DNA of 64,000 nt from an uncultured Spirochaetota bacterium (GTDB lineage: Bacteria; Spirochaetota; Spirochaetia; SZUA-6; Fen-1364): assembly GCA_963820525.1 (NCBI GenBank), contig CAWGAA010000001.1, positions 2,336,001 to 2,400,000 on the forward strand, read 5' to 3'. Positions within the stretch are counted from its first letter, which is position 1. Every line of letters begins with the position of its first letter. Below are positions 2,114 to 60,285 of this stretch, piece by piece. The translations under genes were made by a program, and so were the position numbers. A model generated the notes under the pieces. The model was not told the origin of the DNA, did no database searches, and was given only the letters and a program-made list of their open reading frames with translations.

Positions 2114-5100
2114 ATGGAAGACATGAGTGGAGCGAACCGTCGAATCTTGAAGAGATGTCTCCTCTCCCTCTCTTTTTTGCTCGGCTTTCAGGCAGCCTCT
2201 TTCGCCGCAGGGTCGAAGGAGGCCGACTTCAAGAAGACGGACGGCCGCGACAACTGGGAGTACACCTATGACATCTCCACGATGGCGCCCGGAAAGTACA
2301 ACCTGATCGTCGAGGGCAAGGACAAGGCCGGAAACGTCTCCACCGCGGGCCCTTACAACGTGTATATCGATCCGAAATCCGACCTGCCCGTGGCCGGCAT
2401 TTCCAACCCGACGCCGGGCCTGCGCGTGGGAGGAGATCTCCACATCGTCGGCACCTGCGTGGACGACGATGGAGTGGACCGCGTCGAGGTCAAGCTTGAC
2501 GACGGGGAGTTCGTCAAGGCGGACGGCAGGGAGTACTGGTCCTACTCCCTGGAGGCGGCTTCCATGGCCGACGGCCGCCACACGGTGAGCGCCCGCGGCG
2601 TGGACATCAACGGCCTGGTGGGAGAGCCGGTGAGCGTTTCCTTCAACCTCGATACGCACAGGCCGGTTATCGCCATCGTCTCCCATAAGAGCGGGACCAT
2701 CGTATCGGGGACGGTCACTCTTTCAGGAACCGCCACGGATGCCAACGGGATCAAGAGCCTCGCCTGCAGCCAGGACAACAAGAAAACATTCCGGGAGCTT
2801 CCCCTCCGGCGGGGGAAGGACGACACCTCGGCGCAATTCGAGCTCACCGTGGATACCAAAAAGCTCGCCGATGGCCCGTACGCCTACTGGTTCGGCAGCC
2901 TCGACATGACGGGATCCACCGGATACACGGCGTTTCTCCTGTTCGTGGACAACACGGGCCCCTCCATCGAAATCTTGAAGCCGAAGAGCGACGAGAAGGT
3001 GAGCGGCAGGGTCGCCGTCATAGGCAAGATCACGGAGCGCATCGGCATCAAATCGTTCTCCTACGACGGGGGTGAGGCAAACAGGGGCGCCATAGAACTG
3101 GCCCCGGGCAACCCCTACTGGATCCACGAGTTCGATTTTTCCAAGCCGCGCGCATCCTCCGCGCGCATCCTCTTCACCGTGGTCGACCTCGTGGGAAACA
3201 CAACGACGAAGGATCTCACCGTGCAGATCCTCCCCGACGAGGCGGACCTTCCCGTCGTGACGCTCCGCTCGCCGGCGGCGAACGGGGTCTATCCCGCCGA
3301 TGTCCTTTTGTCCGGCTCGGTCCGCGACGACGATGGAGTGAAGGCAGTGCAATACTCCATCGACGGAGGGAAACCCGTCGTGCTCGATTCCCGGGAGGCT
3401 TTCTCGGCGATGCTCACGGAGCTTCCCGCCGGAAAGCACAAGCTGGCCATCCATGGAGTCGACACCAACGACAGACCGGGAAAGGATGTCACCGTCGAGT
3501 TCACCTCCCGGGGAAAACCTCCGGCGGTCACGGTGGAAAGCGTTTCCAGCGGGAAAGAGAGCGTTCCCTTCAGGCCGGGCTTCGAGATAGCCCGCGACAA
3601 GGGAGCGGTCCTCGTCGGCAGGATATCGACCCTTGGCCAGCTGAAGAGCCTGGAGTGCTCCTTGAACGGCGCTCCAGCGCAGAAGCTCTCCACCAAGGGC
3701 GCCGACAAGGCCGGTGAGGCTTCATTCGAGATCCGCATCCCCCCGACGGTCTCCTTCGGCATGGTGACGCTTTCCGTGCGCGCGACGGACCAGTCCGATC
3801 AGGTGGGCGAGTTCAAGAGCATCATCCACGTGACCAACTACTCCAAGCGCAACATCGAGCCCGGCATCTACTTCCTGCAGACGCGCGCTCAAGCGGATGG
3901 TACGATTCTCTTGACTCCTGAAATGCCCCTGGTGGGGATCTTCACCGGGGAAGAAATACGCTCCGTCAGCATCGAGCCTCCCTCCGACGTGCTTTCCATA
4001 GCCTTGGACGGAGAGAAGATCACGGTGAGCCCGCGCGGAACGGGCGCTGCGGGCCCCCTCCACGTCAAGGTGGTATCGGCCAAGGGGCGCGTCTTCACCT
4101 CCCCCGAGCTCGGATTCCAGGCCGACACGAGCGGAGGCGCCGCTTCCGCAGCCATCGATTTCTCCCGCATCGTCCAGGGAAAAGACTCCTTCGAGTATTC
4201 CCCGGGAATGCGTCTCGTGATCGATAGGTCGACTCTCCTCACGGGGACTGCCGCGATTGCCGCGCAGGTGAAATCCGCCGAGTATGCCCTCCAGGGCGGG
4301 CCCGCGCGAGGCTTCGGCTTGAAGAAGCTCGACACGGCAGGCCAGTACGGATTCGAAATACCCCTTCCGCCCGAACTCCCGTACGGAAAGATCGATCTGC
4401 GCATGGCCGTTACGGATGCAAGCGGTCAGAAAACCGTGCTTTCGACCTCTTTCTTCCGGGTTGAAAAGGAAAGCGGGACGGACAATGACGGGGAAGGCAT
4501 TTACCTCGCCGACTCCCGCATCGACTCGACGGGGGCGCTTCTCCTCGCTCCCGGCGAAAGCATCGGCGGATACTTCAACGGCCGTCCGGTCAAGGAAATC
4601 AGGCTCGACCCCGACACTCCGCTTCTTTCCGCCGCGGCCGATGGCAACTTCATCCGGCTCTCCGCGGTCAAGGAAGGGATGCCGGCGAGCGTCCGCCTGC
4701 GGCTGACCACCGTGGACGGCGACTTCTTCCAATCGGATCCCTACACGGTCCGCTCGGACGCCGGGGCGCCCGCCGTCACCGTGGACTCTCCCCGGACGGG
4801 AGACTGGGTGGGGGCACGGCTGAGGCTGAAGGGATCAGCCTCGGATCCCAACGGAATCGTGAAGCTGGAATACGCCCTGAACTCAAGCGACGCCTTCACC
4901 GCAATCCCGCCGGCCGGGGGGAGCGGGTCGTCCGGCTTCGATATTCCCCTCGATCTGGCGGACGTACCGGACGGGGACGTGGGCTTGACGGTCCGCGCCG
5001 CAGACGGCGCAGGGCGGCAGAGCGTGGTCTCGCTTCGGTTCATGAAGGACTCCGAGGGGCCGGCGATCTCGCTGGTAACTCCTCCCGCCGAAGACCCGGT

Positions 5101-47156: not shown

Positions 47157-48752
47157 CTATGCGCGGGGCAGGCGAACCTCGAAGACCGCGCCGCCGGACT
47201 TTCCGTTCGACGCCTCCACGGTTCCCCCGCAGCCATCGACAATCGCCTTCACGATGGCAAGCCCGAGGCCCGAATGAAGCCTTCCCGGGTTTCCCTGCGG
47301 CCTGAAAGTAAAAAACCGCTCGAATATCTTCGAGATGTGCTCGTCGGGAATCCCCAGCCCCTGGTCTGATACGCGGATGCAGACCTCATCGCCGTCATTT
47401 TCAATATCGATGCGCACGCAGCCGCCCTCTGGAGAAAAACCGACGGCGTTGTCCACGAGGTTTTCCAATACCTCGAGGAGCCTCTCCGGCGGGACCGCGA
47501 CCTGCTCGCAGTCCCCACTCACCAGGAGCTTCACGCTGTGCGCCACACGGCGGCGCCGCATCCCCTCGATCATGCCCTCCGCGATCGCCTTTGGATCTAC
47601 CGGCCGGGCCTCCACGCCGTGCGTTTCCGAATCCAGCCGTGAAAGCTCACGCACTGCCGAGAGCATCCGTTCCATCCTGCTCACGTCTTCCAGAACGAAA
47701 GAAACAAGGTCCTCGCGGCGGTGCTCGTCCTGCTCGCGAGAGAGCAGCTCGGAGGCCGAGCGGATTGAGGCAAGAGGATTCTTGAACTCATGAGAGATGT
47801 CGGAAGCGAACGACTCGGCCAGCCGGATCTGCCTCTCTATGCTCAGCGTGAGCTCGCCGAAGCGGCGCGACAGGTCGCCTATCTCGTCCCGGCGGCGCGT
47901 CGGTGGAAGCCGCCCGCGGAGCCTCCCGCTCTTGTCCAGGATGAGTCCGGCCTGGGCACGAAGGCGGCGCAGGGGGACTGTGATCGTTGCCGAAACCAGG
48001 AGGCTCAAGACCGCCGCGGTGCCGACGGAGTAGAGAAAAAGGGTGAAGATATCGAGGCGCAGGGCATAGAGGTCTGAGAGGATGCGGTAGGTGGACTGGG
48101 AGACCAGAACGGCTCCCACCACTCCTCTCTTGCCCGTTACCGGGATGGCGCTGTACAGGGTCACGGATCGCTGCCCTGCGGCGGATACGCGCGTGGCGGC
48201 CCCATAGCGGCCGTCAAGGGCTGCCTGGATCTCGGGCCCCGAAAGAACGCGGGCGCCTGAATAGAAATCCGCGGATTCCAGCGGGGGCTGGGGCGGGCGA
48301 AAGAGCTTCCGGTATGCCTTGATGGGAAACAAAGCAAGACGATAGAGGAGTGTCTCGCGCGTGTCCCGGCCGCGTTCGATGCCGGCGGACCCGGCTTCGC
48401 CCACAGCCTCGTCCTGCCCCATCGGTTGCGCTGCCCTAGGCGAAGAGGCGCGGCTGGAATCAGCCAGAAGCGCCCCCCGAATGTCCACGACCCTGATGCG
48501 CGCCTCCTGCCGCTGCCGCATGGCGTCCAGGATGCGCCGTGAGTTCGGTCCCAGCTCTCCGGGAGCCGAGCCGTCCAATGCGGCCGCGAGAACCCTTCCC
48601 TGTTGAACCAGGGCATGCTCCAGATCTTGGAGAAGCTGCCGCTCGTAGGTGCCCAAGGAGAGAATTCCGGCAATGGGAAGGAACGCTATGAGAAAGTTGA
48701 AGGCGAAGATGCGCACAGAAATGCGTGAGGCGAATGCCAGGAGCTTCTTCAC
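47157..48752 (-). CDS. Sensor histidine kinase, ChvG/CreC-like
   Basis: FASDISHEFKNPLASIRSA, NLVDNAVGFSP, IFERFFT.RP, HSGLGLAI. Confidence 0.9.
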   Translation of the reverse strand: MKKLLAFASRISVRIFAFNFLIAFLPIAGILSLGTYERQLLQDLEHALVQQGRVLAAALDGSAPGELGPNSRRILDAMRQRQEARIRVVDIRGALLADSSRASSPRAAQPMGQDEAVGEAGSAGIERGRDTRETLLYRLALFPIKAYRKLFRPPQPPLESADFYSGARVLSGPEIQAALDGRYGAATRVSAAGQRSVTLYSAIPVTGKRGVVGAVLVSQSTYRILSDLYALRLDIFTLFLYSVGTAAVLSLLVSATITVPLRRLRAQAGLILDKSGRLRGRLPPTRRRDEIGDLSRRFGELTLSIERQIRLAESFASDISHEFKNPLASIRSASELLSREQDEHRREDLVSFVLEDVSRMERMLSAVRELSRLDSETHGVEARPVDPKAIAEGMIEGMRRRRVAHSVKLLVSGDCEQVAVPPERLLEVLENLVDNAVGFSPEGGCVRIDIENDGDEVCIRVSDQGLGIPDEHISKIFERFFTFRPQGNPGRLHSGLGLAIVKAIVDGCGGTVEASNGKSGGAVFEVRLPRA

Positions 48753-48755
48753 GGC

Positions 48756-49466
48756 TCACTCGCGCCAGCGGTAGCCCAGCCCGTAGATCGTCTCGATCCC
48801 ATCAAAGGCCGGGTCCACGTCGCACAGCTTCCGCCGTATCCGCTTGATGTGGCAGTCCACCGTCCTGTCGCTCATGTACGCGTCTTGGGGGAACGCCGCG
48901 GAGAGCAGATCTTCACGCGAACGTACGAAGCCGGGCTGTCGGGCGAGAGCGGAAAGGATTCGAAACTCGGTCACCGTAAGCCTCACAGGCTTGTCGTTCC
49001 ACGCGGCGGAGAACCGGTCCGCGTCCATAACGAGATGCCCGGAAGAAATCCCTTCGCCCAAGCCCGGCTCCCGCCCCTCCACGGCGATGCCGGCCCTACG
49101 GAAGAGGACCCGCACGCGCGCAACCAGCTCCCGCAGGGAAAAGGGCTTGCAGAGGTAGTCGTCGGCGCCCAGCTCCAGCCCCAGCACCCGGTCGAACTCC
49201 TCGTCGCGGGACGTGAGAAAGATGACGGGGACCTTCTCGGATACGGAGCGTATCCTGCGGCACAGCTCCAGGCCGTCCATGCGCGGCATGACGATATCGA
49301 GGATCACGAGGTCGGGAAGGTCCTTCTCGAGCTCTTGCCATGCCGAAAGGCCGTCGGGGTAGCAGCGCGCCGCGAAGCCCTCTTCGCCGAGGGCTTGGGA
49401 CAGAGTGGCCCGGAGATGATCCTCGTCGTCGACGATCGCGATGAGCGGTTGGCGGAGGCTGGGCAT
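48756..49466 (-). CDS. Response regulator, ChvI/CreB-like
   Basis: LDIVMPRMDG, LTVTEF, DRTVDCHIKRIRRK, FDGIETIYGLGYRW. Confidence 0.9.
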   Translation of the reverse strand: MPSLRQPLIAIVDDEDHLRATLSQALGEEGFAARCYPDGLSAWQELEKDLPDLVILDIVMPRMDGLELCRRIRSVSEKVPVIFLTSRDEEFDRVLGLELGADDYLCKPFSLRELVARVRVLFRRAGIAVEGREPGLGEGISSGHLVMDADRFSAAWNDKPVRLTVTEFRILSALARQPGFVRSREDLLSAAFPQDAYMSDRTVDCHIKRIRRKLCDVDPAFDGIETIYGLGYRWRE

Positions 49467-49568: not shown

Positions 49569-49641
49569 ACGAGGATGGCGGGATTCAGCCACGGTGGCCC
49601 GATACCCTTCACTTCAGAATCCGATCGAAAAGGAGAGAAGA

Positions 49642-51042
49642 ATGGATGCAACGACAAAGCTGTCGACCCACGTCAAAAGGAACCCCGCCATCGTGAAGAT
49701 CGTGATCATCGCCGCCCTTGTTCTGCTCCTCCTCATCCCGCTGGCCATGATCCGTTCTCTTGTGGACGAGAGGCAGGGCGTGCACAGGGAAGCGGAAGCG
49801 GAAATACTCAAGAGCTGGGGAGGGGGCGAGACCATCGGGGGCCCGGTCCTCACGGTCCCGTACCTGGAATACTCCCTGGACGCCAAGGGCAAGCGCCTGG
49901 AGACCGTGAGGTACGCCCGCTTCCTGCCCGACAGGCTGTCATTCGACGGTGAGGCTCTGCCGGAGGTCCGCTCGCGCGGGATCTACGACGTCGCGGTCTA
50001 CACGGCGCGGATTCACGCAAGCGGGACCTTCCGCCGTCCGTCCTTCGGGGGATGGCGGATTGCACAGGAGGCGATTCTCTGGAACGCCGCGTTTCTCTCG
50101 GTTGAGCTTCCTGACATGCGAGCAGTGCAGGAGCGAGTCACCCTGACGTGGGGCGCCCGGAAGAACCCCTTCGAGACATCGACGGCGAGCCTGGGGCTGT
50201 TCGTCGGTGAGCTTCGCGCGGCCGCGACCGATCTCGCCCTCACCCAGCCGGGGGAGCGCATCACGTTCTCCTTCGATCTCGTTCTCAGGGGCGGCGATAC
50301 CCTGGAGTTCCTGCCGCTGGGAGAGGAAACCACTGTGAGCTTGCGGTCCTCCTGGAAGAGCCCCAGCTTCAACGGCGCGTTCCTCCCCGTAAGCCGCTCG
50401 CTCTCGGACTCCGGCTTCGAGGCGACGTGGAAGGTCCTCTCCATGGCGCGGATCTATCCCCAGCGATGGCTCCCCGAACAGATCGAGCCCCAGAGCATCC
50501 ACTCCTCGGCTTTCGGGGTAAGCCTCATGACGCCCGTCGACTCTTATATGAAGGTGACCCGGGCGACGAAATACGGCATACTTTTTCTGCTCCTCCCGTT
50601 TCTTACCCTCTTCTTTTTCGAGATTTTCGCCGTCCGGAGAATCCACCCCCTGCAGTACCTGTTCGTGGGGTTCGCAGAATGCATCTTCTACCTCCTGCTC
50701 CTGTCCCTCTGCGAGCACATCCCCTTCCTGGCCGCCTACATCGCCGCCGCCGCGGCCTCCATCGGCCTCATTGCCTCCTACACCTTCGCCATTTCATCGC
50801 GGTGGAAGGGGAGCTTCCTGATCCTTCCCGTTCTTATCACCGCGTACGCATTCCTCTATCTGGTTCTCCGCTCCGAGGACTACGCTCTCCTCGTCGGATC
50901 TCTGGGGCTGTTCATCATCCTTTCGGCCGTCATGGCGCTGACCCGCAAGATCGACTGGTATTCGATCGGGCTTCCCAGAACCGCGCCGGAAGCGAAGGGG
51001 CGGGGTGATGGGGTGGAGGGAGGCGGAGGTGAAAAAAGTTGA
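49642..51042 (+). CDS. creD: Inner membrane protein CreD
   Basis: LLIPL..I..LV.ER, RGIY, W.SPSF.G.FLP, RATKYG.LF, IHPLQY, EDYALLVGS, TRKIDWY. Confidence 0.93.
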   Translation: MDATTKLSTHVKRNPAIVKIVIIAALVLLLLIPLAMIRSLVDERQGVHREAEAEILKSWGGGETIGGPVLTVPYLEYSLDAKGKRLETVRYARFLPDRLSFDGEALPEVRSRGIYDVAVYTARIHASGTFRRPSFGGWRIAQEAILWNAAFLSVELPDMRAVQERVTLTWGARKNPFETSTASLGLFVGELRAAATDLALTQPGERITFSFDLVLRGGDTLEFLPLGEETTVSLRSSWKSPSFNGAFLPVSRSLSDSGFEATWKVLSMARIYPQRWLPEQIEPQSIHSSAFGVSLMTPVDSYMKVTRATKYGILFLLLPFLTLFFFEIFAVRRIHPLQYLFVGFAECIFYLLLLSLCEHIPFLAAYIAAAAASIGLIASYTFAISSRWKGSFLILPVLITAYAFLYLVLRSEDYALLVGSLGLFIILSAVMALTRKIDWYSIGLPRTAPEAKGRGDGVEGGGGEKS

Positions 51043-51084: not shown

Positions 51085-51717
51085 ATGCCAGTCAAGCACC
51101 CGTTTCTTCTGTATCTCCGCTCCCGGCTGAACCTCTGGGTCTCTGCGGCCGCCGCGGGCCTCATCATCGCCGCGGCGGTCTTCCTGGGCTCCTGGCTCCT
51201 TGCGGCGGCCATCCTCGTCCTTTTCGCGTACCTCGTCGCCACCTTCCTCCTGTTCTTCTCGCACAGGGGCGCCCGGGAAGTCGTCGAGGAAAGCGAGCAG
51301 GACAGAATGAAGAAGGTTCGGGAGAAAATCGACTATTACGCTCGAATGCGGGAACAAATCGCAGTTCTGCGCGTTGGAGACGAGGCCATGAGAAAGAGCC
51401 TGGAGTACTTTCTCCTCGAATCCGGCGCGTACATAGAGAAATGCCGCCAGGCCGGACTCTATTCCCCCCGGGCGAACAAGAGGATCGAGGACGCGCTGGA
51501 GATCTGCCAGGCTTTTCTCGGGGAGCTGGACGAGAGCTCCACGGAAAAACGCTACGGCGTGCGGGATGGGGAGAGCTTCGAGGAGTTCGCAAAGAGGTCA
51601 GTGGATGCGGTGATGGCGGCCGGCTCGGACATCAAGGAGTGGACCACCGAGGACCTCATCGGCCTGAGCGCCCAGGACAGGCTGTCCATCATCGAGGAGC
51701 TGGAAGGGAAAAAATGA
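51085..51717 (+). CDS. Hypothetical 2-TM membrane protein with helical cytoplasmic domain
   Basis: Two hydrophobic segments then charged helices; ATGA overlap with the next gene. Confidence 0.7.
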   Translation: MPVKHPFLLYLRSRLNLWVSAAAAGLIIAAAVFLGSWLLAAAILVLFAYLVATFLLFFSHRGAREVVEESEQDRMKKVREKIDYYARMREQIAVLRVGDEAMRKSLEYFLLESGAYIEKCRQAGLYSPRANKRIEDALEICQAFLGELDESSTEKRYGVRDGESFEEFAKRSVDAVMAAGSDIKEWTTEDLIGLSAQDRLSIIEELEGKK

Positions 51718-53339
51718 GCAGAAGGTTTGCCCCGGTTGTTCTCGCGTTCTGTCTGGCGGCGAGCGCCGCATTCGGCCTGGACGTCCGGCTCAACTCCGCG
51801 GAGATGGACGTCGTGGTGCGTCCGGACGGCAAAGCCGCCGTATTCGAGAGCCTCGACTGGATGGCTTCCGGCGGTCAGATGCACGGGTTCTACTTCCAGG
51901 GGGCGGCCGCCCCGCCCGTCTTCAACCTGGACCAGTGCCACGCCGACCTGGCGGGGGGGACGCGCGTCGGCCTCCAGATCTCGGACCTGGGCTCCGGCAA
52001 ATACGACGTCGTGCTGGCGGGCGGCCGCGGATTCAGCGGCTCCGCCATGTACTTCCTCAACTACGGCCAGGACCTGGCGAGGACAAAGCTCATCGGCACC
52101 ACCGAGTCGAGCCAGCTGGGAAAGCTCTTCTACTTCGACTGGGCGCCGGAGGAGTGGGAGTATCCAATGGACCACAGGACGGTCCGGGTTGTCCTCCCCA
52201 TCAAGACGGGAAGCGATGTCGGCCAGGCTCTCATCGACAAGATCGACCTTCGCACCGAGCCGTACGTCAACCAGGAGAACAAGATCGACTACTTCGGCAG
52301 CAAGGGAAGCGACGGCTCGTACTATCTCACCATCCGATTCCACCAGCAGAGCGTCGCCCCGAGGCAGAGCCAGCGGATCCAGTTCTACATCAAGGCGGAT
52401 CAGGTGCCCATGACGGTCTCCCTGACGGAGAGCACGCAGGTCCCGCAGGCGGGTGCTCCTTCCGGAAGCCAGGGCGAGACACAGCCGTCAGAGATGTACC
52501 CCGAGCGGACGCGGCTCCTCCCGAACCCCCTCATCTCCGCCCCCTTCCTGGGAGCCCTCATTGTCCTCGAGATCGTTCTCTACCTCCTGAAGGTGAGAGG
52601 ATTCGCAAAGACCGTGGAAAAGGTGGAGAGCATCCGCTGGGCGGGCGACAACTGGATTCCGCCCAAGCTCTACGTCGGCACGTATCAAGTGAAGGGCAAG
52701 ATCGTCAAGGACCTCCACCCCATCGAGGCCGCGCTGCTGTTGGAGCTGCCCCTCGCCCGGGTGGTGGCGATTATGCTTGAAGGCCTCAAGCGTCAGGGCA
52801 TCATCGAGGTGGTCACGGAGGACCCCCTCCAGATCAGGATCCTCACGGCCCGCAAGGCCGAGCACGAGTACGAGGAGCTTTTCCTCCAGGCCTTCGACAC
52901 CAAGGGCAATGTTCTCTCGGGGCTCCTCTCCGACTTCTTCGAGAAGGTGCTGGCCAGGCTCCAGGAAAAGATCTGGGACTGCGACATCGAGGCGACGAAG
53001 GACTTCTATAGAAAGAAGCTCGAGCAGAGGGAGGAAACTGAAGCGGACCGCCTGGAGCCGCACTACTGGTACTGGACCTCCTACCGCTACATCTACTGGA
53101 ACGCGGCCGTCTACCCCCACATCCACCTGCCGGCCGAGTTCTCCTCCGGCTACCAGCAGTTCATGGCATCGGCCTCCTGCTTCAAGGGATGCTTCGCTCC
53201 GGCGCAGGCAATGACGGGCGGAGTCGGCGCCTGCTATTCAGCGTGCCATAACGCCTGCCACTCCGCCTGCCATTCAGCCTGCCATTCGGCCTGCCACTCC
53301 GCCTGTCATTCAGCCTGCGTCTCCGGGGGGGCGCACTGA
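51714..53339 (+). CDS. Membrane protein (signal peptide, DUF2207-like periplasmic domain, TM) with a C-terminal (A-C-x-x)8 Cys repeat; putative radical SAM target
   Basis: Start MSRRFAPVVLAFCLAASAAFG; TM PFLGALIVLEIVLYLL; ends ACYSACHNACHSACHSACHSACHSACHSACVSGGAH. Confidence 0.8.
   Translation: MSRRFAPVVLAFCLAASAAFGLDVRLNSAEMDVVVRPDGKAAVFESLDWMASGGQMHGFYFQGAAAPPVFNLDQCHADLAGGTRVGLQISDLGSGKYDVVLAGGRGFSGSAMYFLNYGQDLARTKLIGTTESSQLGKLFYFDWAPEEWEYPMDHRTVRVVLPIKTGSDVGQALIDKIDLRTEPYVNQENKIDYFGSKGSDGSYYLTIRFHQQSVAPRQSQRIQFYIKADQVPMTVSLTESTQVPQAGAPSGSQGETQPSEMYPERTRLLPNPLISAPFLGALIVLEIVLYLLKVRGFAKTVEKVESIRWAGDNWIPPKLYVGTYQVKGKIVKDLHPIEAALLLELPLARVVAIMLEGLKRQGIIEVVTEDPLQIRILTARKAEHEYEELFLQAFDTKGNVLSGLLSDFFEKVLARLQEKIWDCDIEATKDFYRKKLEQREETEADRLEPHYWYWTSYRYIYWNAAVYPHIHLPAEFSSGYQQFMASASCFKGCFAPAQAMTGGVGACYSACHNACHSACHSACHSACHSACHSACVSGGAH
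53229..53324 (+). repeat. 12-bp coding tandem repeat x8 (A-C-[H/Y/V]-[S/N])
   Basis: gcc tgc cay tcn units with synonymous variation. Confidence 0.95.
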
Positions 53340-53341
53340 GA

Positions 53342-54721
53342 ATGACAACGAAGAAAGGCGCCTCCGCGCCGGTAACCGTGGCGGACCTGGCCTGGATAGA
53401 CGAGTTCTACCGTGAAATGCGGCCCTACCTCTTTGTGCGTGAAGAAGACGAAGTGGTGATCCTTCCGCCCAATCAGGTCTACAAGGCCAATTCTTCGGGG
53501 ATAGCCCTGCTCAAGCACCTGGAGCGCGGCCGGAGGATCTCCCGGTTTGCCGGGCTCCAGGATGGAGAGCGGGCGCACCAGGTGAACGACTTCTTCGCCG
53601 ACCTGCGCGACTTCTGCGCCGGCGACACGAGGGGCATGGACTCACGGCCTTCGGTGGAAAGGATCCCCTACACCTTTCACTACACGGCCCTTCCCATTCT
53701 CGGCGAGATCGCCGTCACCTACCGCTGCAACAACTCATGCCTGTTCTGCTACGCCTCGTGCGGCAGCGGCGCTCGCGGCTGCGGCGGCGGCCCCCAGGCG
53801 CTCGGCGGCGCAGGCGGAGAACGCAGCGAGATGACCCTGGCCGAGATCAAGCGGATAATCGACATCTTCAAGACCGAAGCCCATATCCCCTTCTTCTCTT
53901 TTACGGGAGGCGAGCCGCTCCTGAGGAGGGATCTGGAGGAGATGATCCGCTATGCCCGCGCAATAGGATTGCGGGTCAACCTCATCACCAATGCGACGAT
54001 GGCGGATCCCTCACGGTCGCGCCGGCTCCGCAAGAGCGGCCTCACCACTGCCCAGGTAAGCGTTGAAAGCCCCGACGAAGAGATCCACGACCGTCTCACG
54101 GCCAGTCCCGGCTCCTTCCGCCGGACCCTCCAGGGAATCAGAAGCCTTCAGGAGGCGGGTATCGCGGTGCAGACCAACACCACCATCACGGCGGCAAACG
54201 CCGGTTCGGCGCCGCAGATGCCCGCGTTCCTCGCCGGCCGGGGAGTGAGCCGCTTCGCAATGAACCTCTACATCCCCGTCTCCGCCGGCGGGGCGCACAA
54301 CGGCTTGTTCTTTCCCTACTCTTCAATCGGCCCCGTGATCGAGTCGGTGCGGGCGGCCGCGCTTGGCCGGGGCCTCACCTTCTATTGGTATTCACCCGTT
54401 CCGCACTGCATCTACAATCCGATCGCAAAGGGGCTGGGAAACAAGTCGTGCGCAGCGATGGACGGGCTTCTGTCGGTATCGCCTTCGGGGGAGGTCCTTC
54501 CCTGCTCTTCCTACCCCCGGTCGATGGGCAGCCTTCTGACGAAGAGCTTCCGCGATGTGTGGTTCTCCGCGGAGGCGGCCCATTTCAAGAACAAGGAATA
54601 CGCTCCCGCCTGCTGCGCGGGCTGCGAGAGCTTTCGCGCCTGCCAGGCCGCCTGCCCCCTGTACTGGGAGCAGGCGGGAACGGCGGAGATCGCGGGCGCG
54701 CGTTCGCTGAAGGAGGCATGA
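53342..54721 (+). CDS. Radical SAM/SPASM protein with N-terminal PqqD/RRE-like domain
   Basis: CNNSCLFC, FTGGEPLLR, LITNA; SPASM C..(SPSGEVLPC)..CAGCESFRACQAAC; extra ~90-aa N-terminal domain. Confidence 0.92.
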   Translation: MTTKKGASAPVTVADLAWIDEFYREMRPYLFVREEDEVVILPPNQVYKANSSGIALLKHLERGRRISRFAGLQDGERAHQVNDFFADLRDFCAGDTRGMDSRPSVERIPYTFHYTALPILGEIAVTYRCNNSCLFCYASCGSGARGCGGGPQALGGAGGERSEMTLAEIKRIIDIFKTEAHIPFFSFTGGEPLLRRDLEEMIRYARAIGLRVNLITNATMADPSRSRRLRKSGLTTAQVSVESPDEEIHDRLTASPGSFRRTLQGIRSLQEAGIAVQTNTTITAANAGSAPQMPAFLAGRGVSRFAMNLYIPVSAGGAHNGLFFPYSSIGPVIESVRAAALGRGLTFYWYSPVPHCIYNPIAKGLGNKSCAAMDGLLSVSPSGEVLPCSSYPRSMGSLLTKSFRDVWFSAEAAHFKNKEYAPACCAGCESFRACQAACPLYWEQAGTAEIAGARSLKEA

Positions 54722-55638
54722 AGAAAATGCTGCTCGCCTACACGATCCCCAAGGTCCCGCTTACCGTCCGCCTCCTTCTCTTCGCCGCATTCGCGGCGGC
54801 GGGAGCAGCGGTCCAGCTCCTCCTGGGCGACTTCGGCGTCTTTCTGGGCGCCATCCTGATGGTACCGGGGCTCATCTTCGTCTGGGCAAAGGGCTATCGG
54901 AACAAGCCGGTTGACCTCGGCTTCCAGGACTGGCAGCCCGTTTCAGCCGCCGAGTTCGGAAGGATCAAGAGCAATCTTGCATTCACGCGAAAGGGGCGCT
55001 ACTCAGTGATCTACAAGCCGGGATTCGGGGTCTTCATCATCATCGCCCTGGGAATCCTCGCGCTCGTGTTCCTCTTTTCGGAGGCCGCCCTGGCCGCCCT
55101 GTTCTCCTTCGACGCGGCCGTGCTCCTCCTCCCCTTCCTCTTCTCCGGCAACGTGAGGCTGTGGACGCCGCAGGAGCTCGCCTTCAAGATGCACGGCTTC
55201 GATACAATCGTCGGATCCGAGCCGACTGAAGGCGGCGACATCATCATCACCCCGTACCTCCGCCTGGACAAGGACAAGGAGGGGAGGAGGATACCTGAGG
55301 ACATCCGCCTCATGGTGGAGCCGCGCAGGAAGCCCGCAGACTTCCTGGGAGTGCAGTTCCAGGTTGCCATCAACAAGGGCCCCAACGGGCCAGTGCCGTA
55401 CATGTACGCCGTATTCCTCTGCAAGGGTAAGGGAGAATCATTCAGTTGGGTCGATTCCCAGCGCTTCTCCGGCATGGAGCAGGAGCCGGGAGGGGACAAG
55501 GAGTACGGCTATGTCGTGGTCCGCCAGAAAACCTCGGGAACGGGCTATCACACGACCGACTCCGACATCAAGAGGCTCTACGGCATCGTCAAGGAAAAGC
55601 TCCTCGCGATGAAAGGCGGCGACAAGGCGGCCAATTAG
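54718..55638 (+). CDS. Hypothetical multi-TM membrane protein
   Basis: SD AGGAGG; ATGA overlap with the radical SAM stop; about 4 TM segments plus a soluble C-domain. Confidence 0.75.
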   Translation: MKKMLLAYTIPKVPLTVRLLLFAAFAAAGAAVQLLLGDFGVFLGAILMVPGLIFVWAKGYRNKPVDLGFQDWQPVSAAEFGRIKSNLAFTRKGRYSVIYKPGFGVFIIIALGILALVFLFSEAALAALFSFDAAVLLLPFLFSGNVRLWTPQELAFKMHGFDTIVGSEPTEGGDIIITPYLRLDKDKEGRRIPEDIRLMVEPRRKPADFLGVQFQVAINKGPNGPVPYMYAVFLCKGKGESFSWVDSQRFSGMEQEPGGDKEYGYVVVRQKTSGTGYHTTDSDIKRLYGIVKEKLLAMKGGDKAAN

Positions 55639-55722: not shown

Positions 55723-58261
55723 CTACCTCGCTTTTATCTTGCAGGCGAGATCCTTGCTGAAGGCAGGAACGTCCAGGGTCAGCGCACCGTCCCGGGCGGT
55801 CAGGGTCTGCTCGGAAACAAGCCTTCCGGTCTGGGGGTCCCAAAGCTGGACGCTCCACTTTGAAGAGGCGGAATCCTCAGCGCGGCCTCCATCTCCGCCC
55901 GAGCCGCCCGCCGATGCTCCGGCTTTCAGGCCGACGGGGATGTCGATGGTGAATCCCTCCAGGGTCGGAAAGACCACGTTGCCCAGGCCCTCGCTGATCG
56001 CCAGATCCTCGAAGCCCTGATACGAATAATGGGAATCCTTGATCCAGACGAAGCTCTCCTCCGGCCCGGAAAGCCGATAGATACGGACTCCGGTGCGCTT
56101 TTCCATCGGGGCGGGCGCCAGATTCATCCCCGCAAGGTCCATCGCCGGCGAGGAACCGGGAGAGGGCCCGAATTGTCCGTAGAGATCGTTCGGCTCGATG
56201 TACTGGTCCCACCACCACAGCATCCCCCCGGCGGCAGCCCCGGCCATGAAGCTTCCCCACATCCCGTCATGGAGGATGATTCCCTCCTTGTCCGGGATAT
56301 CGCCGCTGATGCCGTACTCCCCGAAGAAAAAGGGCTTGTCGGCGTCGGATCTGGCCTTGTCCGTTTCACGCTTCATGTATGCGGCCCAATCGCCCAGGCT
56401 GTACTTGTGCTCCTGCACGAAATCCATCATCTGCCAGGACGGATCGTCGGCCGAAACGGGAATGGAGTAGCTGTTGCTCACCATGTGCCTGCCCAGATCC
56501 AGGCTCCTGATGCCGTCTGCCGTCTCTTTCAGCCAAGGGACCCAGTCGGGGGAGCCAATGACGCCATCCGCGAAGTTCACCTCGTTCCACAGCTCCCAGG
56601 CGAAGATGTGCGTGCTGTAGCCCCAACGCGAGACGATATAGCGCATCCGCTGCATGAAGAGCTTTTTCGCCCTCGGGTCCGAGAGGAATTGCGCAGGCGT
56701 ATCCAGGAATCCCCCCGCGGCCCTGTTGTAGGGATTGGACTGCCACTCCGGATTCGTCCCCGTGCTGAACGCGCCGTGATTGAGCAGGCAGAGCATGAGG
56801 TAGATGCCCTTCTTCCCGGCGAGGTCCACTACAGAGTCGAGCTCCCATGCCTGGCGCTGCCGCGCCGAATAATCGCCTAGCCCCGTGTCCGACCACTCCT
56901 GGGCAAAGCCCCAGCTTGCAAACCAGATCCGCGCGTAATTGGCGCCCGCGCCGCCCATTTTTCCGAACCAGAGGTCGTAGGCGGAGATGCCGCGCGGGTC
57001 GTACCAGGCGACGTTGCTGCCGATGGGAAAGAATGTTCCCCCCCGCTGGAACTCGAAGTAGTGGCGGTCCCGCGTCGAGACATGGATGTAGCCTCGATCC
57101 GAGCCGGCAATCGTGTCGAAGCTGCGCAGATCCGATTCAACCGCTTGTTCCGGGGCCGGGGAGGCGCTCCCCGATTGTAGCTGCCTCCATTTCCGCGCCA
57201 CGAGCTTGTACGACCACTTCCCTTCTTCGCTCGGCGCGAATCTGACCTTCCACCAACCGTCCCCCTCGGGCCTGATTGACTCCTGCGAGACGGACGTGTC
57301 CCGCGCAAAAGGGACATACCAGAACGCCGGAACGCGCGAGGTCTTGCCGGACGGCGAGGTGAACAGGGCATCGAGAGTGAGCTCCGCCGGATCGTAGGGA
57401 TTGGCCGCGCGAAGGGAGAAGCTCGGCGTCGATCTCGAACTTCTCGAACACGGGAACTCTTGCCGCAGCCATGATCGAGCTGAACGCGAAGGCCTGCCCC
57501 GCGGCGGGAGACCCCGTGGCGGGAGATTCCGGAGCCCGCCGGGCCGATGGGGCCCCTCGCGCGGAAATGAGACGCAGGTTGTCGAAGAGCACGCTCCCGG
57601 CCGGGTTTTCAAGGCCGGTAATGGAAAAGCCGATCAGCGAAACGTTCTGGGCATTGCGAATGTCGGCCACTCTCCTGCCCGAGGTCTCGGGAGAGCTGAA
57701 TGTCCGGCCGTGGAAGTCGAAGGAGAGCGTGGACGTTGAGTGAGGCACGATGCTGAATACCTGTGACCTCTGGGCCGATCCATCCTGGCCGGCCTCCAGG
57801 AAAAGGGAGATCATGAGCCTTTCGGTGCAGCGGCTGACCACGTCTATCTCCAGGCCATCCACCCTGCTCCAATCCTGCGGGGGCGTCAGCCTGCGAAAGA
57901 AGTCCACGGATGCGAGGCCGGTGATGGCAAAGCTCACCTCCAGGGCGCCCGAACCCTCGGTCTGGCCCTCGCGCACGATCCGCAGCGATGCCTGCGCCTT
58001 GCCCTCGGATCTCACCTTGAGGGATGCACCCGCTTCGAAGGGTCCCTGCGCCGATTTCCATCCCGACTCCACATCGAAGCTGTCCCACGGTATTCGATCC
58101 AGCGGTGTCCCCCTCCCTGGCGCCTCTGCTCCCGGCGCCGCCAGACCAGGCGCCTCCGGAGAGGTTCCACAGCCCGCCATCGCCGCGAAAACGAGAAGGC
58201 CCGCAAGGGCGGGAAGCGATGTCCCGCCGCGCGTCGCGCGGGTGTGTTTGGATGGGCTCAT
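55723..58261 (-). CDS. GH5-like (clan GH-A) glycoside hydrolase lipoprotein with N-terminal CBM-like and DUF5060-like domains; frameshifted near 57425
   Basis: Lipobox MAGC; NPYDP..F.SPSG..FW..WKVRFAP; RYIVSRWGYS, AWELWNE, QEHKY, KPFFFGEYG, WWWD. The two track ORFs join at ~57420-57430. Confidence 0.75.
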
Positions 58262-58308: not shown

Positions 58309-60285
58309 CTACTTCACGCGCTCGCCGATAATCTCGATCTCCCACAGGGAGAATCCCCATTGGGTGCCGCGGACCTTCGCGTCAAGCTTCACGGAGCGCA
58401 CCTTCGCGGGCGCGAGCGCCACCTCGTCGATTCCGCCGTCCGAATCCGCCACGCTTGCGAGGAGGGTCCAACTCTCCCCATCGGCGCTTCCCAGGATATC
58501 GTAGAGCTTGCCGTAAGCGGCCTCCCAAGCGAGGACCGCCTTCGTCACCGTGAATGTGCCCTGGAGGTCGATGACCAGCCACTGGCCGTCCTTGTACTCG
58601 CTGGACCAGCGGGTCTTGGGATTCCCGTCGTTTGCGTATGCGGCCAGGCTTTCCGTGTTCTCCACGCTGCTCGCGACGACCGGCTTCAGAAGCGCCACAT
58701 TGCCGCGATCCGGATCGATGACATGAATCATGAAGCTTGCCGGCGTCTCATTGTCAGCCTTGTCCCGCGCGATCAGGGAGACGGGGATGCTTCCGAGCTT
58801 CCCCGCTCCGGCGAGGGTGACGGAGAGCTTCCCCGCCGGGCTCAGCGAAAGGGAGGCAACCTGCGAGTCCCCCGGTACGACAAGGGCGAAGGTGATGTCT
58901 GAGCCGTCCTCCGGATCCTGGACAAAGGCTTTCAGGTCAAGGACGTCGGGCCAGGAGCGCTGCGCCACGTTCAGGATAAGATCCGTGAGCGGCTTTACAA
59001 CCCGGGGACCGCGGTCCAGTCCCGAACGATCCAGGGCGATGAAGCTTGCGTAGTCCTCGCTGATTCCGCTCATGGCATCGGCGCAGTGGAAGAACCCGCC
59101 ATATCCGTCGTGGTTGGTCATTGTCCAGGAAAGGGCGCCCGCGTACCCGTTTTCGATGGCGTAGCGGTACGCTTCCTCGCTCGACAACCGGCTCTTCGGG
59201 GCGAATCCGCTGTGACCCGTGATCGGAACGATCCCCTTGGCGGGGAACTCCGCGATCACCAGCGGCTTATCAAGGCCCCAGTGGCTCTTGGGGTTGTGAA
59301 AGGGCGAGAGCCCCTCGTCGAAGTATTCGGGATAGTAATGCACGGAGTAAAAATCCAGAACGCCATCCTTGTCGCCCCCGGCCTCGATCAAGCGGTCGTC
59401 GCGGTAGTAGTTGATCAGGCCGCCGATGTCGGTGGCCACCTGGATATTCCAGCTTCCGTTCGTGACGAGGCTGCCGGGAGCCTCGCGATGGATGGCTCCC
59501 GCCACCCTGTTGATGAAGCCCTGCACCGCCTCCATCGAAGTGCGCTTGGATGTCCATCCGAAAGAGGGGAGCATCCCCTCCGGCTCGTTGAAGACTTCCC
59601 ACGCAATCAGGCCGGGATGGCTTTTCACCCTTCGCACCAGGGGCAAGAGGGCCCTGTCGATGAAGGCCTTCGTCGCGGCCGGATCCTCGATCAGCCTGAC
59701 GTTTCTGGCAAGATCGGCGCCGGCCTGCTTTTGCAGAAGGTCGAAGGACCAGAGACAGAGGATGAGGCCGACGCCCCGCTCGAAGGCGATATCCAGGGCA
59801 CGTTTCACAACCAGGATCTGCTCGGGAGCAAGCTCCTTCACGAGCCCGTCCTCCCCGAACGCGGGGGAGCGCGAGCCGTTCACGAAGATCCACCAGCGGA
59901 TGCAATTGCCGCCTGCGGCCGCGATGTTCTCCGCCTGCTCCGTGAACTTCCCTTCATTGAAGCGGTCGAGGTCTTTGGCGTAGTCCATCCACGCCAGATT
60001 CATCCCGTTCAGGAAAATCCTTTTCCCGCTGTGAGGGATGAGGTTGGCAGGGTCGATGGCCGCCCCGCTTGACGCCGGGGCAGGAGCGGGAACCTTGACG
60101 CCGTCCTCGGCGGGCGCGGAGGGAGCCGGGGCTTGGGCGCTCGGCTGCGAAGCGGGCGTGGCCTTCTCTGCGGAGCTTTCGGGCTTGCTCGCGGCCGGCG
60201 CCGAGGCGCACGCGGCAAGAACGGCGATTGCCGCTACGATCGCCGCAGCGCGAAGGCACGTCATCCACGGAAGCCTCATGTCCAT
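58309..60285 (-). CDS. GH5 endo-beta-mannanase-like lipoprotein with C-terminal F5/8 type C (CBM32) domain
   Basis: Lipobox LAAC; GMNLAW, WEVFNEPEG, DFYSVHYY, KPLVIAEF; NVALLKPVVASS..DGNPKTRWSS..WGFSLWE. Confidence 0.85.
   Translation of the reverse strand: MDMRLPWMTCLRAAAIVAAIAVLAACASAPAASKPESSAEKATPASQPSAQAPAPSAPAEDGVKVPAPAPASSGAAIDPANLIPHSGKRIFLNGMNLAWMDYAKDLDRFNEGKFTEQAENIAAAGGNCIRWWIFVNGSRSPAFGEDGLVKELAPEQILVVKRALDIAFERGVGLILCLWSFDLLQKQAGADLARNVRLIEDPAATKAFIDRALLPLVRRVKSHPGLIAWEVFNEPEGMLPSFGWTSKRTSMEAVQGFINRVAGAIHREAPGSLVTNGSWNIQVATDIGGLINYYRDDRLIEAGGDKDGVLDFYSVHYYPEYFDEGLSPFHNPKSHWGLDKPLVIAEFPAKGIVPITGHSGFAPKSRLSSEEAYRYAIENGYAGALSWTMTNHDGYGGFFHCADAMSGISEDYASFIALDRSGLDRGPRVVKPLTDLILNVAQRSWPDVLDLKAFVQDPEDGSDITFALVVPGDSQVASLSLSPAGKLSVTLAGAGKLGSIPVSLIARDKADNETPASFMIHVIDPDRGNVALLKPVVASSVENTESLAAYANDGNPKTRWSSEYKDGQWLVIDLQGTFTVTKAVLAWEAAYGKLYDILGSADGESWTLLASVADSDGGIDEVALAPAKVRSVKLDAKVRGTQWGFSLWEIEIIGERVK

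Follow-up and report, generated by a model that had tools for sequence, protein, structure and literature searches.

What does a radical S-adenosylmethionine (SAM) enzyme act on when the gene directly in front of its own encodes a large membrane protein that ends in a run of cysteines and histidines? This question is raised by a four-gene cassette, here called A to D, that lies within a window of 64,000 nucleotides from an uncultured Spirochaetota bacterium (contig CAWGAA010000001.1, positions 2,336,001 to 2,400,000). A first-pass annotation of this window had read the locus as modification of a membrane protein tail in the style of the peptides that ribosomes make and that then undergo posttranslational modification (RiPPs), a reading that our sequence comparisons support. 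The explanation that we favor, granting it slightly less than an even chance, is that enzyme C crosslinks the cytoplasmic tail of protein B, most likely through Cys thioethers, and that the product would stay tethered to the membrane. The four genes are:

51085-51717, + strand: gene A, an open reading frame (ORF) of 210 aa; two N-terminal transmembrane (TM) helices and a helical cytoplasmic domain, as predicted.
51714-53339, + strand: gene B, 541 aa from the ATG at 51714; a predicted bitopic protein with signal peptide, periplasmic beta-sandwich, one TM helix, cytoplasmic domain and Cys-His tail.
53342-54721, + strand: gene C, a 459-aa enzyme with an RRE-like domain (RRE, RiPP recognition element), a radical SAM core and a SPASM domain.
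54718-55638, + strand: gene D, 306 aa; four predicted TM helices and a conserved C-terminal domain, predicted to be cytoplasmic.

These ORFs and their domains agree with the earlier description of a 2-TM protein, a 541-aa membrane protein, a radical SAM enzyme and a multi-TM protein (D having four TM helices), and the tight coupling of the four genes is borne out by the sequence. Specifically, ATGA overlaps join A to B (51714-51717) and C to D (54718-54721), and the TGA stop of B (53337-53339) is followed by "ga", the 2-nt gap at 53340-53341, and then by the ATG of C at 53342. An AAGGAGG lies at 54710-54716, ahead of the ATG of D. The first-pass annotation had also seen no short precursor, protease or exporter in the operon, and none was detected in the cassette with the ORF list, NCBIfam and Pfam; the ORF list contains no short ORF with a Cys-His repeat in the cassette, and the repeat-coding pattern is confined to B genome-wide. 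A and D showed no peptidase or transporter family in Pfam, NCBIfam and Protein Data Bank (PDB) profile scans; as they match no known family, either might be a peptidase or transporter of a novel kind.

The pairing of enzyme and tail was followed through three sets of loci: 50 loci on genome contigs, with enzyme identities of 50-67%; the best 80 of 520 confirmed metagenome matches, all at least 50% identical; and eight loci from 401 evenly sampled genomes of the phylum to which the window belongs. In every locus with upstream sequence, a tail-bearing gene lies directly upstream of the enzyme gene and ends at or overlaps the enzyme start (130/130, made up of 47/47 genome, 75/75 metagenome and 8/8 phylum-search loci). 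The three genome loci lacking B start inside the enzyme gene, and the metagenome tails of L101 and L113 were recognized by eye. The arrangement recurs in all 130 testable loci and is far beyond chance, and the question posed in the first pass, whether homologs of the enzyme always sit beside a protein with a Cys-repeat tail, is answered in the affirmative throughout them. Homologs of A, B, C and D are found in 40, 47, 49 and 46 of the 50 genome loci, respectively, and any flanking ORF in at most 12 of the 50. Among the metagenome loci, D lies downstream of C in 53 of the 55 with at least 1000 nt of downstream sequence, and A upstream of B in 30 of the 33 with at least 2400 nt of upstream sequence. 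The genome loci come mostly from Spirochaetota metagenome-assembled genomes (MAGs), with four labeled Myxococcota or Myxococcales (L003, L038, L039 and L047). B-like matches occur in 19 of the 401 phylum-sample genomes and in 16 of 153 genera, and each of the eight loci analyzed from this sample consists of a tail gene followed by a homologous enzyme, 38-52% identical.

One locus, L005, appears to encode a fusion of B and the enzyme (P0010, 937 aa, named "radical SAM protein"). Since a tail, ACHSACHSACVSGRSH, and its stop are present there in another frame, the fusion is probably an assembly frameshift and not a natural fused form.

More distant branches keep the pair and alter the rest. L053 and L054 carry a 609-aa B with 27-28% identity plus a D-like gene. 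In a distant branch of low GC content, L055-L057, the counterpart of B (B′) has 911-929 aa and has in common with B only the TM helix, the cytoplasmic domain, the tail and a weak match to the N-terminal domain. Its tail reads SFSYD(ACHS)3ACVHS(ACHS)2ACVHS(ACHS)2ACVSSF. Downstream of B′ come the enzyme and two zinc-ribbon proteins, one of 421-426 aa with a coiled coil and one of 177-179 aa with two TM helices; neither A, sought by tblastn, nor D was detected in this branch. The variant cassettes of this branch are located as follows:

L055, 4308-8553: variant cassette.
L056, 5497-11458: variant cassette.
L057, 4391-10355: variant cassette.

Because the pairing persists in these loci with B′ enlarged and A and D replaced, the conserved core of the system is the tail-bearing protein together with the enzyme.

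The tail itself is highly regular. Its parts in the window are:

53175-53195, + strand: pre-repeat S-C-F-K-G-C-F, B residues 488-494, a candidate leader-like recognition segment.
53229-53324, + strand: repeat tail of eight A-C-x-x units, B residues 506-537, from the translation.
53325-53339, + strand: G-G-A-H C-terminus and TGA stop of B, from the translation.

The C-terminus of B reads ...SASCFKGCFAPAQAMTGGVG-ACYS-ACHN-(ACHS)x5-ACVS-GGAH, in which the eight AC-x-x units and the GGAH end described in the first pass can be counted directly. Tandem Repeats Finder assigns the tail DNA a 12-bp period. A degenerate pattern for three consecutive Ala-Cys-His-Ser units matches only this locus in the 5.05-Mb genome (three overlapping matches), and the reversed-pattern control gave no match in the same genome. 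The pre-repeat segment sits in a conserved LPxxFSxGYxxFMxSxSCFxGCFxP, with Y480, F483, S486, C489, F490, G492 and C493 invariant in 40 sequences; the SCFKGCF motif is clade-specific, since other branches have ...[S/G]YD-ACHS in its place. A search with B residues 311-541 found 99 homologs, and the source labels of B homologs include Spirochaetia, Candidatus Ozemobacteraceae, Anaerolineales, "Proteobacteria bacterium" and one Helarchaeota MAG. The repeat is present in all 80 proteins (79 unique) with a complete C-terminus among the 113 collected, the remaining listed homologs being ended by a contig edge or visibly frameshifted; among those listed, no full-length B homolog lacks the tail.

Across the 79 unique tails, the terminal Cys run comprises 3-11 units, and successive Cys residues are four residues apart in 477 of 504 intervals and five apart in the other 27. 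Ala precedes Cys in 549 of 583 cases, and Cys is mostly followed by His (459) or Val (101), with Val coming after the last Cys in most tails. The second position after Cys is mostly Ser (390) or Asp (114), and the position three residues ahead of Cys holds His 495 times and Tyr 24 times, again out of 583. In the five-residue units the extra residue stands between Cys and His (ACVH[S/D]AC) and H-x-A-C is kept, so that [His/Tyr]-x-Ala-Cys, as the register preserved best, describes the unit better. Thus, of the poly-ACHS tail proposed in the first pass, the Cys repeat stands and ACHS as its unit gives way to [H/Y]-x-A-C.

The window has eight units and the modal number is nine (45 of 47 genome loci and 69 of 75 metagenome loci), with counts of 3, 4, 5, 7 and 10 also present in the genome-contig and metagenome loci. 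The nine-unit tails, from 115 loci, come in 102 distinct DNA versions and 38 protein versions. Of their 40 codon columns, 29 are invariant in amino acid, and all 29 show at least two synonymous codons; over the 102 DNA versions, pairwise third-base identity is 0.48 compared with an amino-acid identity of 0.93, and the terminal residue is His in 97. Because third-base identity is low, amino-acid identity is high and synonymous codons vary, the tail is kept by strong selection on the protein and not by DNA homogenization. Maintenance of the repeat by DNA slippage or recent expansion was rejected on the same ground, as synonymous codons vary freely.

A separate feature of the tail DNA is that the enzyme frame is open across the last tail codons in another frame (e.g., ...ALKLGWID... 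in L101, at ~3290-3400) in many loci; this puts the likely enzyme start of those loci within the tail-coding repeat and suggests translational coupling.

The register of the repeat bears on the chemistry that a substrate tail would undergo. It could be that the tail is modified through a carbon-carbon bond, in a triceptide-type cyclophane that joins the His/Tyr ring at position 1 to the Ala beta-carbon at position 3 and leaves the Cys thiols free for metal. We consider this unlikely, while regarding it as the strongest competitor of thioether formation. The best-conserved register, [H/Y]-x-A-C, is what such a reaction would call for, and the five-residue units, which keep H-x-A-C, break the adjacency of Cys and His; moreover, the first unit is Y-S-A in the spirochaete clade and the repeat starts with Y-D-A in other clades, and the Val after the last Cys means that no further aromatic-x-Ala unit follows there. 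The invariant Cys of every unit, in contrast, has no role in cyclophane formation. A chemical precedent is provided by HaaB, which, according to PMC11499958, links His1-C2 to Ala3-C-beta on an HAA motif.

The enzyme shows the following features:

53378-53617, + strand: RRE/PqqD-like domain, C residues ~13-92, with a helix, three strands and further helices in the model.
53726-53749, + strand: CX3CX2C radical SAM cluster motif, C129/C133/C136, invariant in 33 and in 16 aligned sequences.
54407-54655, + strand: SPASM region with seven invariant Cys (C356, C370, C388, C425, C428, C434 and C438), from Pfam and the alignments.

C matches Radical_SAM (PF04055) with 98.3 bits (cutoff 29.5) and SPASM (PF13186) with 35.6 bits (cutoff 21.5), and so belongs to the radical SAM superfamily and its SPASM subgroup. 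SPASM is a C-terminal Cys-rich domain that holds two auxiliary 4Fe-4S clusters, and its seven Cys in C are invariant in both alignments, of 33 and of 16 sequences. The AlphaFold2 (AF2) model of C has a pLDDT of 84.9 and a pTM of 0.86, and its N-terminus is built of helix 13-29, strands 31-33, 38-41 and 45-48, and helices 51-61 and 76-92 (block pLDDT 76-96). The top Foldseek matches were SkfB (1.5e-15) and SuiB (3.4e-14). Upon realignment, Z scores were 26.1 for SkfB, 25.1-25.6 for SuiB, ~25 for anSME, 22.5-22.7 for CteB and 22.2 for PqqE, and the core superposes on many radical SAM structures with Z of 22-26; sequence identity to the SkfB, CteB and SuiB structures is 14-21%. The SuiB alignment covers 17/22-454 of the C model versus 0/2-439 of the chain and includes the N-terminal domain, which in SuiB we take to be an RRE. 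anSME, viperin, CteB, PqqE and MoaA tie or nearly tie with the top matches over the core only. In an orthologue from L056 that is 39% identical, PqqD (PF05402) scores 25.4 bits, above the cutoff of 23.4, and the window enzyme, though under this cutoff, is the best PqqD-like match of its whole genome. We read the N-terminal domain of C as a divergent RRE-like domain. The RRE suggested in the first pass is therefore upheld by the predicted fold (three strands plus helices, and the SuiB superposition), and by Pfam in the L056 protein only, the window protein being subthreshold.

These comparisons bear on the bond formed as well. SuiB, which is a C-C crosslinker, is among the top full-length fold matches, as a cyclophane would suggest, but WgkB, the sole C-C crosslink maturase among the NCBIfam matches listed, scores 59.4 bits against C, with a cutoff of 650. 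The seven-Cys SPASM count, as in CrpC, resembles that of thioether formers described in PMC13692751. Together with the invariant Cys of the repeat and the thioether-forming fold matches SkfB and CteB, this count argues for a thioether, which we favor over the cyclophane, although the sequence data are not decisive.

Other maturase families do not accommodate C either. Of the sactipeptide maturases, StsB gives 82.9 bits (cutoff 625), and C is also far under the NCBIfam cutoffs for PqqE and the mycofactocin maturase. A search of 1.84 billion representative proteins returned only 134 at E ≤ 1e-30, and none of 22 full-length-sized enzyme relatives, chosen from the 150 matches listed, matched an NCBIfam family at E ≤ 1e-45. 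A cofold of C with B residues 460-541, three 4Fe-4S clusters and SAM scored 0.01 (mark 0.32); run without controls, it weighs neither way.

The fold and family scores also raise the possibility that the tail is left unmodified. It would then be a Cys/His metal- or iron-sulfur-binding tail of an A-B-D complex, with C acting on a cofactor or lipid for that complex, or it would provide C with clusters or sulfur or carry electrons for it. We judge this improbable. Cys-His-rich termini are classical metal-binding elements, and the highest NCBIfam score of the C core is to a cofactor enzyme, AhbD, but that match spans the radical SAM core alone (residues 125-314) and, at 122.7 bits, is far below the cutoff of 500, as are the scores for NirJ2 (97.8/500), AhbC (89.9/650) and NirJ (76.9/515). 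An AhbD/NirJ-type cofactor enzyme was accordingly rejected, these scores being far under the cutoffs and an RRE-like domain being present; the clustering with Ahb/NirJ that the first pass had named as its own counterargument is absent. The fold ties of C with viperin, MoaA and BlsE speak for a nonpeptide role of C, whereas its RRE-like N-terminal domain is typical of peptide-recognizing enzymes. Many Cys-rich proteins beside radical SAM genes are predicted metal binders, according to PMC13692751. The enzyme here, however, stays linked to the tail when all other parts change, and plain metal binding does not obviously need an invariant Ala and a fixed four-residue register, held through 102 DNA versions.

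The layout of B bears on where the tail lies relative to C. The domain of B that always precedes the tail is:

52701-53153, + strand: B residues ~330-480, a winged-helix-like plus helical cytoplasmic domain in the AF2 model.

The AF2 model of B, built from 40 homologs, has a pLDDT of 77.5. It begins with a signal-peptide-like helix, followed by a confident beta-sandwich (strands 23-227), a disordered linker (240-271), a long helix (272-305) and then Lys/Arg-rich sequence; the domain at ~330-480 is again confident (helices 336-342 and 347-360, strands 364-369 and 372-376, then helices). The tail, residues 489-541, has a pLDDT below 50 and is predicted to be disordered, and RiPP cores usually are disordered. 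With its signal peptide removed and a single TM helix, B is predicted to hold its C-terminal domain and its tail in the cytoplasm. This would place the tail in the same compartment as C, because C is a radical SAM enzyme without a signal peptide. In fold, the N-terminal domain is similar to the Ost1/ribophorin I lumenal domain (Z 14.4, rmsd 2.7, 175 aligned) and, with Z 10-12, to the M1 aminopeptidase N-domain; the cytoplasmic domain found only weak fold matches, to GOLPH3/Vps74 (Z 5.8 and 5.1). The first-pass annotation had expected a DUF2207-like partner for the enzyme. A Cys-tailed neighbor is indeed what is found, and its DUF2207 relationship is subthreshold in the B of the window, the N-domain match to PF09972 scoring 21.1 bits against a cutoff of 24.4. 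B belongs to no curated NCBIfam family, and the DUF2207 match is its Pfam result, below cutoff as stated; PF09972 is precomputed on a few B homologs, some of which NCBI names DUF2207, and in the Atlas B residues 311-490 lie near DUF2207-labeled clusters (scores 0.89-0.93).

A further Pfam accession, PF27846.1, is precomputed on many B homologs, including C-terminal-only fragments (P0264 and P0274) and an unrelated short protein (P0273), and because of this distribution it probably models the Cys-His repeat; part of these proteins may thus already have been modeled by Pfam curators as PF27846. P0273 (229 aa) falls in a second, separate family of short proteins with P0267, P0271, P0272, P0275, P0276 and P0277 (134-143 aa), in which an N-terminal hydrophobic signal or anchor and ~80 residues are followed by [N/A]-C-[Y/H]-x repeats up to an ...ACHGSRGWR end. 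The family is subthreshold for TIGR04117 and TIGR04118, and it may represent the equivalent, among small proteins, of the tail on the membrane protein. One B homolog, L012:4361-5962, has an in-frame TAA at codon 258, in the disordered periplasmic linker, which is either an assembly error or the mark of a broken gene.

The architecture of B could also be that of an oversized RiPP precursor, from which the modified tail would be cleaved and then released or exported, the rest of B being a leader or membrane scaffold and A and/or D a protease or exporter. A C-terminal core behind a conserved segment is the usual leader/core order of RiPPs, and A and D, as membrane proteins of no known family, might have an export or processing role. 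Nevertheless, we think this very unlikely: A, D and the genes that replace them in the distant branch (examined in L056) yielded no peptidase or transporter family, no cleavage-type motif ahead of the repeats is common to all branches, and A and D are dispensable for the pairing of B and C. Moreover, column identity in B averages 55% over 40 sequences, with the periplasmic and cytoplasmic domains both conserved, which suggests that B has a function of its own.

We return to the modification of the tail in place, for which we infer a substrate, a chemistry and a physiological role from the results above. In this model the cassette would be self-contained, with the pair B and C as its core. B would be anchored in the inner membrane, the beta-sandwich facing the periplasm and the winged-helix-like domain, with the Cys-His tail, facing the cytoplasm; C, a cytoplasmic enzyme, would be translated from the same message directly after B. 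C would first bind B, either at the conserved pre-repeat segment or at the cytoplasmic domain, and then work iteratively along the disordered tail, introducing a single intramolecular crosslink into each [His/Tyr]-x-Ala-Cys unit. Each crosslink would most likely be a sactionine- or ranthionine-type thioether that joins the Cys sulfur with a neighboring residue's carbon. Neither cut off nor exported, the product would remain on B as a rigid appendage that displays His; its probable role would be metal binding or redox relay, in concert with the cytoplasmic domains of A and D. Neither of these two proteins has known relatives: A matched no family above threshold in Pfam, NCBIfam or a PDB profile search, and D none above noise in Pfam, NCBIfam, PDB profiles and a per-member Pfam scan of 31 D homologs, falling in the Atlas only into "hypothetical protein" clusters. 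Since the soluble parts of A and D are all predicted to be cytoplasmic (by a positive-inside reading), both could contact the tail. With the same reserve, just short of an even chance, we propose that the cassette represents a widespread, so far undescribed "tethered RiPP" class, in which an enzyme turns a [His/Tyr]-x-Ala-Cys tail into a ladder of 3-11 small crosslinked rings, a membrane-anchored module for metal binding or electron relay. The length of the ladder would be tuned by repeat number, the module would work with two novel membrane proteins, and its carriers would be anaerobic sediment and wetland bacteria under several phylum labels.

Several results speak for crosslinking of the tail in place. 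In L055-L057, the enzyme and the tail stay linked with the other components exchanged; the predicted architecture of the enzyme matches that of RiPP maturases, with SkfB and SuiB as top folds and an orthologue that passes the PqqD cutoff; and a unit number that varies from 3 to 11 fits per-unit modification better than one fixed metal site. Other points weigh against it. Modification of the tail is something we infer, and an unmodified repeat of Cys and His could suffice to bind metals or Fe-S clusters. The near-invariant His is unexplained by a simple Cys-thioether model, and the five-residue units, in keeping H-x-A-C, fit a His-centered motif at least equally well. With regard to the enzyme, PqqD is subthreshold in the window protein (14.6 bits vs. 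the cutoff of 23.4) and reaches E ≤ 0.1 in only 4 of 33 aligned members. The fold leaves the substrate class unfixed, because the nonpeptide enzymes viperin, anSME, MoaA and BlsE equal the RiPP maturases in Z when the catalytic core is compared. Finally, the linkage holds for enzymes at least 38% identical, in loci gathered by enzyme similarity, and further full-length relatives at 27-34% identity exist, beyond the range of the context counts.

How, then, does the cassette compare with known systems? As described in PMC13692751 (2026), CrpC from Methanococcus voltae, a radical SAM-SPASM enzyme with a predicted RRE, puts ranthionine crosslinks on the 28.8-kDa protein CrpA, which has ten 17-residue repeats with C-x-x-Q/D; its authors propose Cys-rich proteins beside such enzymes as substrates and cite QHNDH as another protein-level precedent. 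A radical SAM/SPASM enzyme that acts on a protein rather than a peptide is thus already precedented. Both cases combine an enzyme of RRE (in C an RRE-like domain), radical SAM core and seven-Cys SPASM domain with an adjacent protein-sized substrate (here a putative one) bearing C-terminal tandem Cys repeats, and in both the product is, or in our case would be, a modified protein and not an excised peptide. They differ in that B is an integral membrane protein with four-residue [H/Y]-x-A-C units and that A and D have no counterpart in the CrpC/CrpA system as there described. The window enzyme falls outside the CrpC family, TIGR04463, scoring 27.9 bits against a cutoff of 525, and three supplementary files of PMC13692751 contain no mention of DUF2207, spirochaetes or the repeat string.

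The CXXX-repeat systems of NCBIfam (maturase TIGR04115; targets TIGR04117 and TIGR04118) and the ACGX system (TIGR04340), the closest families on bioinformatic grounds and defined by bioinformatics, are alike in that a radical SAM/SPASM enzyme adjoins a target with Cys at every fourth residue. The window enzyme lies outside these maturase families, giving no match to TIGR04115 at E ≤ 0.01 and 87.5 bits against the cutoff of 400 for TIGR04340. The tail scores 8.5 bits for TIGR04117 (cutoff 50), other family members reach at most 16.2 bits, and the ACGX-peptide models give no match to the tail at E ≤ 10. By model length (98 and 46 positions) the CXXX targets are short peptides, whereas here the repeat is the tail of a membrane protein. 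We know of nothing published on the chemistry of the CXXX-repeat and ACGX systems.

SkfB, CteB and SuiB, the best structural matches, share with C the order of N-terminal domain, radical SAM core and SPASM domain. The substrates of sactipeptide and ranthipeptide enzymes and of SuiB are short leader-core peptides that are processed and exported, and the short leader-core precursor gene that marks a classical sactipeptide or ranthipeptide cluster is absent from the cassette. Triceptide synthases such as HaaB act on repeated aromatic-x-x motifs, which the [H/Y]-x-A run of the tail recalls, a likeness of substrate pattern alone; triceptides do not feature an invariant Cys behind each H-x-A, and their precursors are short peptides. 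DUF2207 proteins (PF09972/PF20990) resemble B in their layout of signal peptide, periplasmic beta-sandwich and TM segment; to our knowledge, neither a Cys-His repeat tail nor linkage to a radical SAM enzyme is a known feature of them. Literature searches found no paper that joins DUF2207 with radical SAM enzymes, none on PF27846 and none describing this cassette, and searches on the tail repeat strings, ACGX, TIGR04115, TIGR04117, TIGR04340, and ranthipeptide with membrane protein gave only unrelated papers among those listed. What sets the cassette apart from all these systems is the cytoplasmic tail of an integral membrane protein as the putative substrate, the distinct four-residue Cys-His unit, a dedicated conserved cytoplasmic domain ahead of the tail, and two accessory membrane proteins without known relatives.

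Radical SAM/SPASM crosslinkers are known almost entirely from small secreted peptides, and protein-sized substrates are rare; if our reading is correct, an integral membrane protein would be modified in place, and the cassette would provide a first functional handle on the DUF2207-like family and on two membrane protein families that lack known relatives. As the four-residue module is regular and strongly selected, its chemistry is directly testable with a small construct, and the natural spread from 3 to 11 units lends itself to a study of tandem-site processing by such enzymes.

The stretch is present in wetland and freshwater-sediment metagenome runs from several studies, seven of which contain at least half of the sampled words; an anaerobic carrier fits this origin. 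No RNA run was listed with the stretch, which has no bearing on expression.

The genes around the cassette appear to be separate from it. A CreD homolog (49594-51042, + strand; 471.5 bits in NCBIfam and 474.9 bits in Pfam) lies directly upstream of A, and ahead of it is a divergent pair of response-regulator and histidine-kinase-like genes (47157-49466, - strand). CreD and the two-component genes were rejected as parts of the system, as CreD adjoins the cassette in only 3 of 50 loci (L011, L035 and L036). Downstream, two large ORFs converge on the cassette, one of 629 aa (55723-57612, - strand) and one of 658 aa (58309-60285, - strand); homologs of neither recur beside the cassette (fewer than 2 of the 50 genome loci), and the 658-aa ORF has a signal-peptide-like start.

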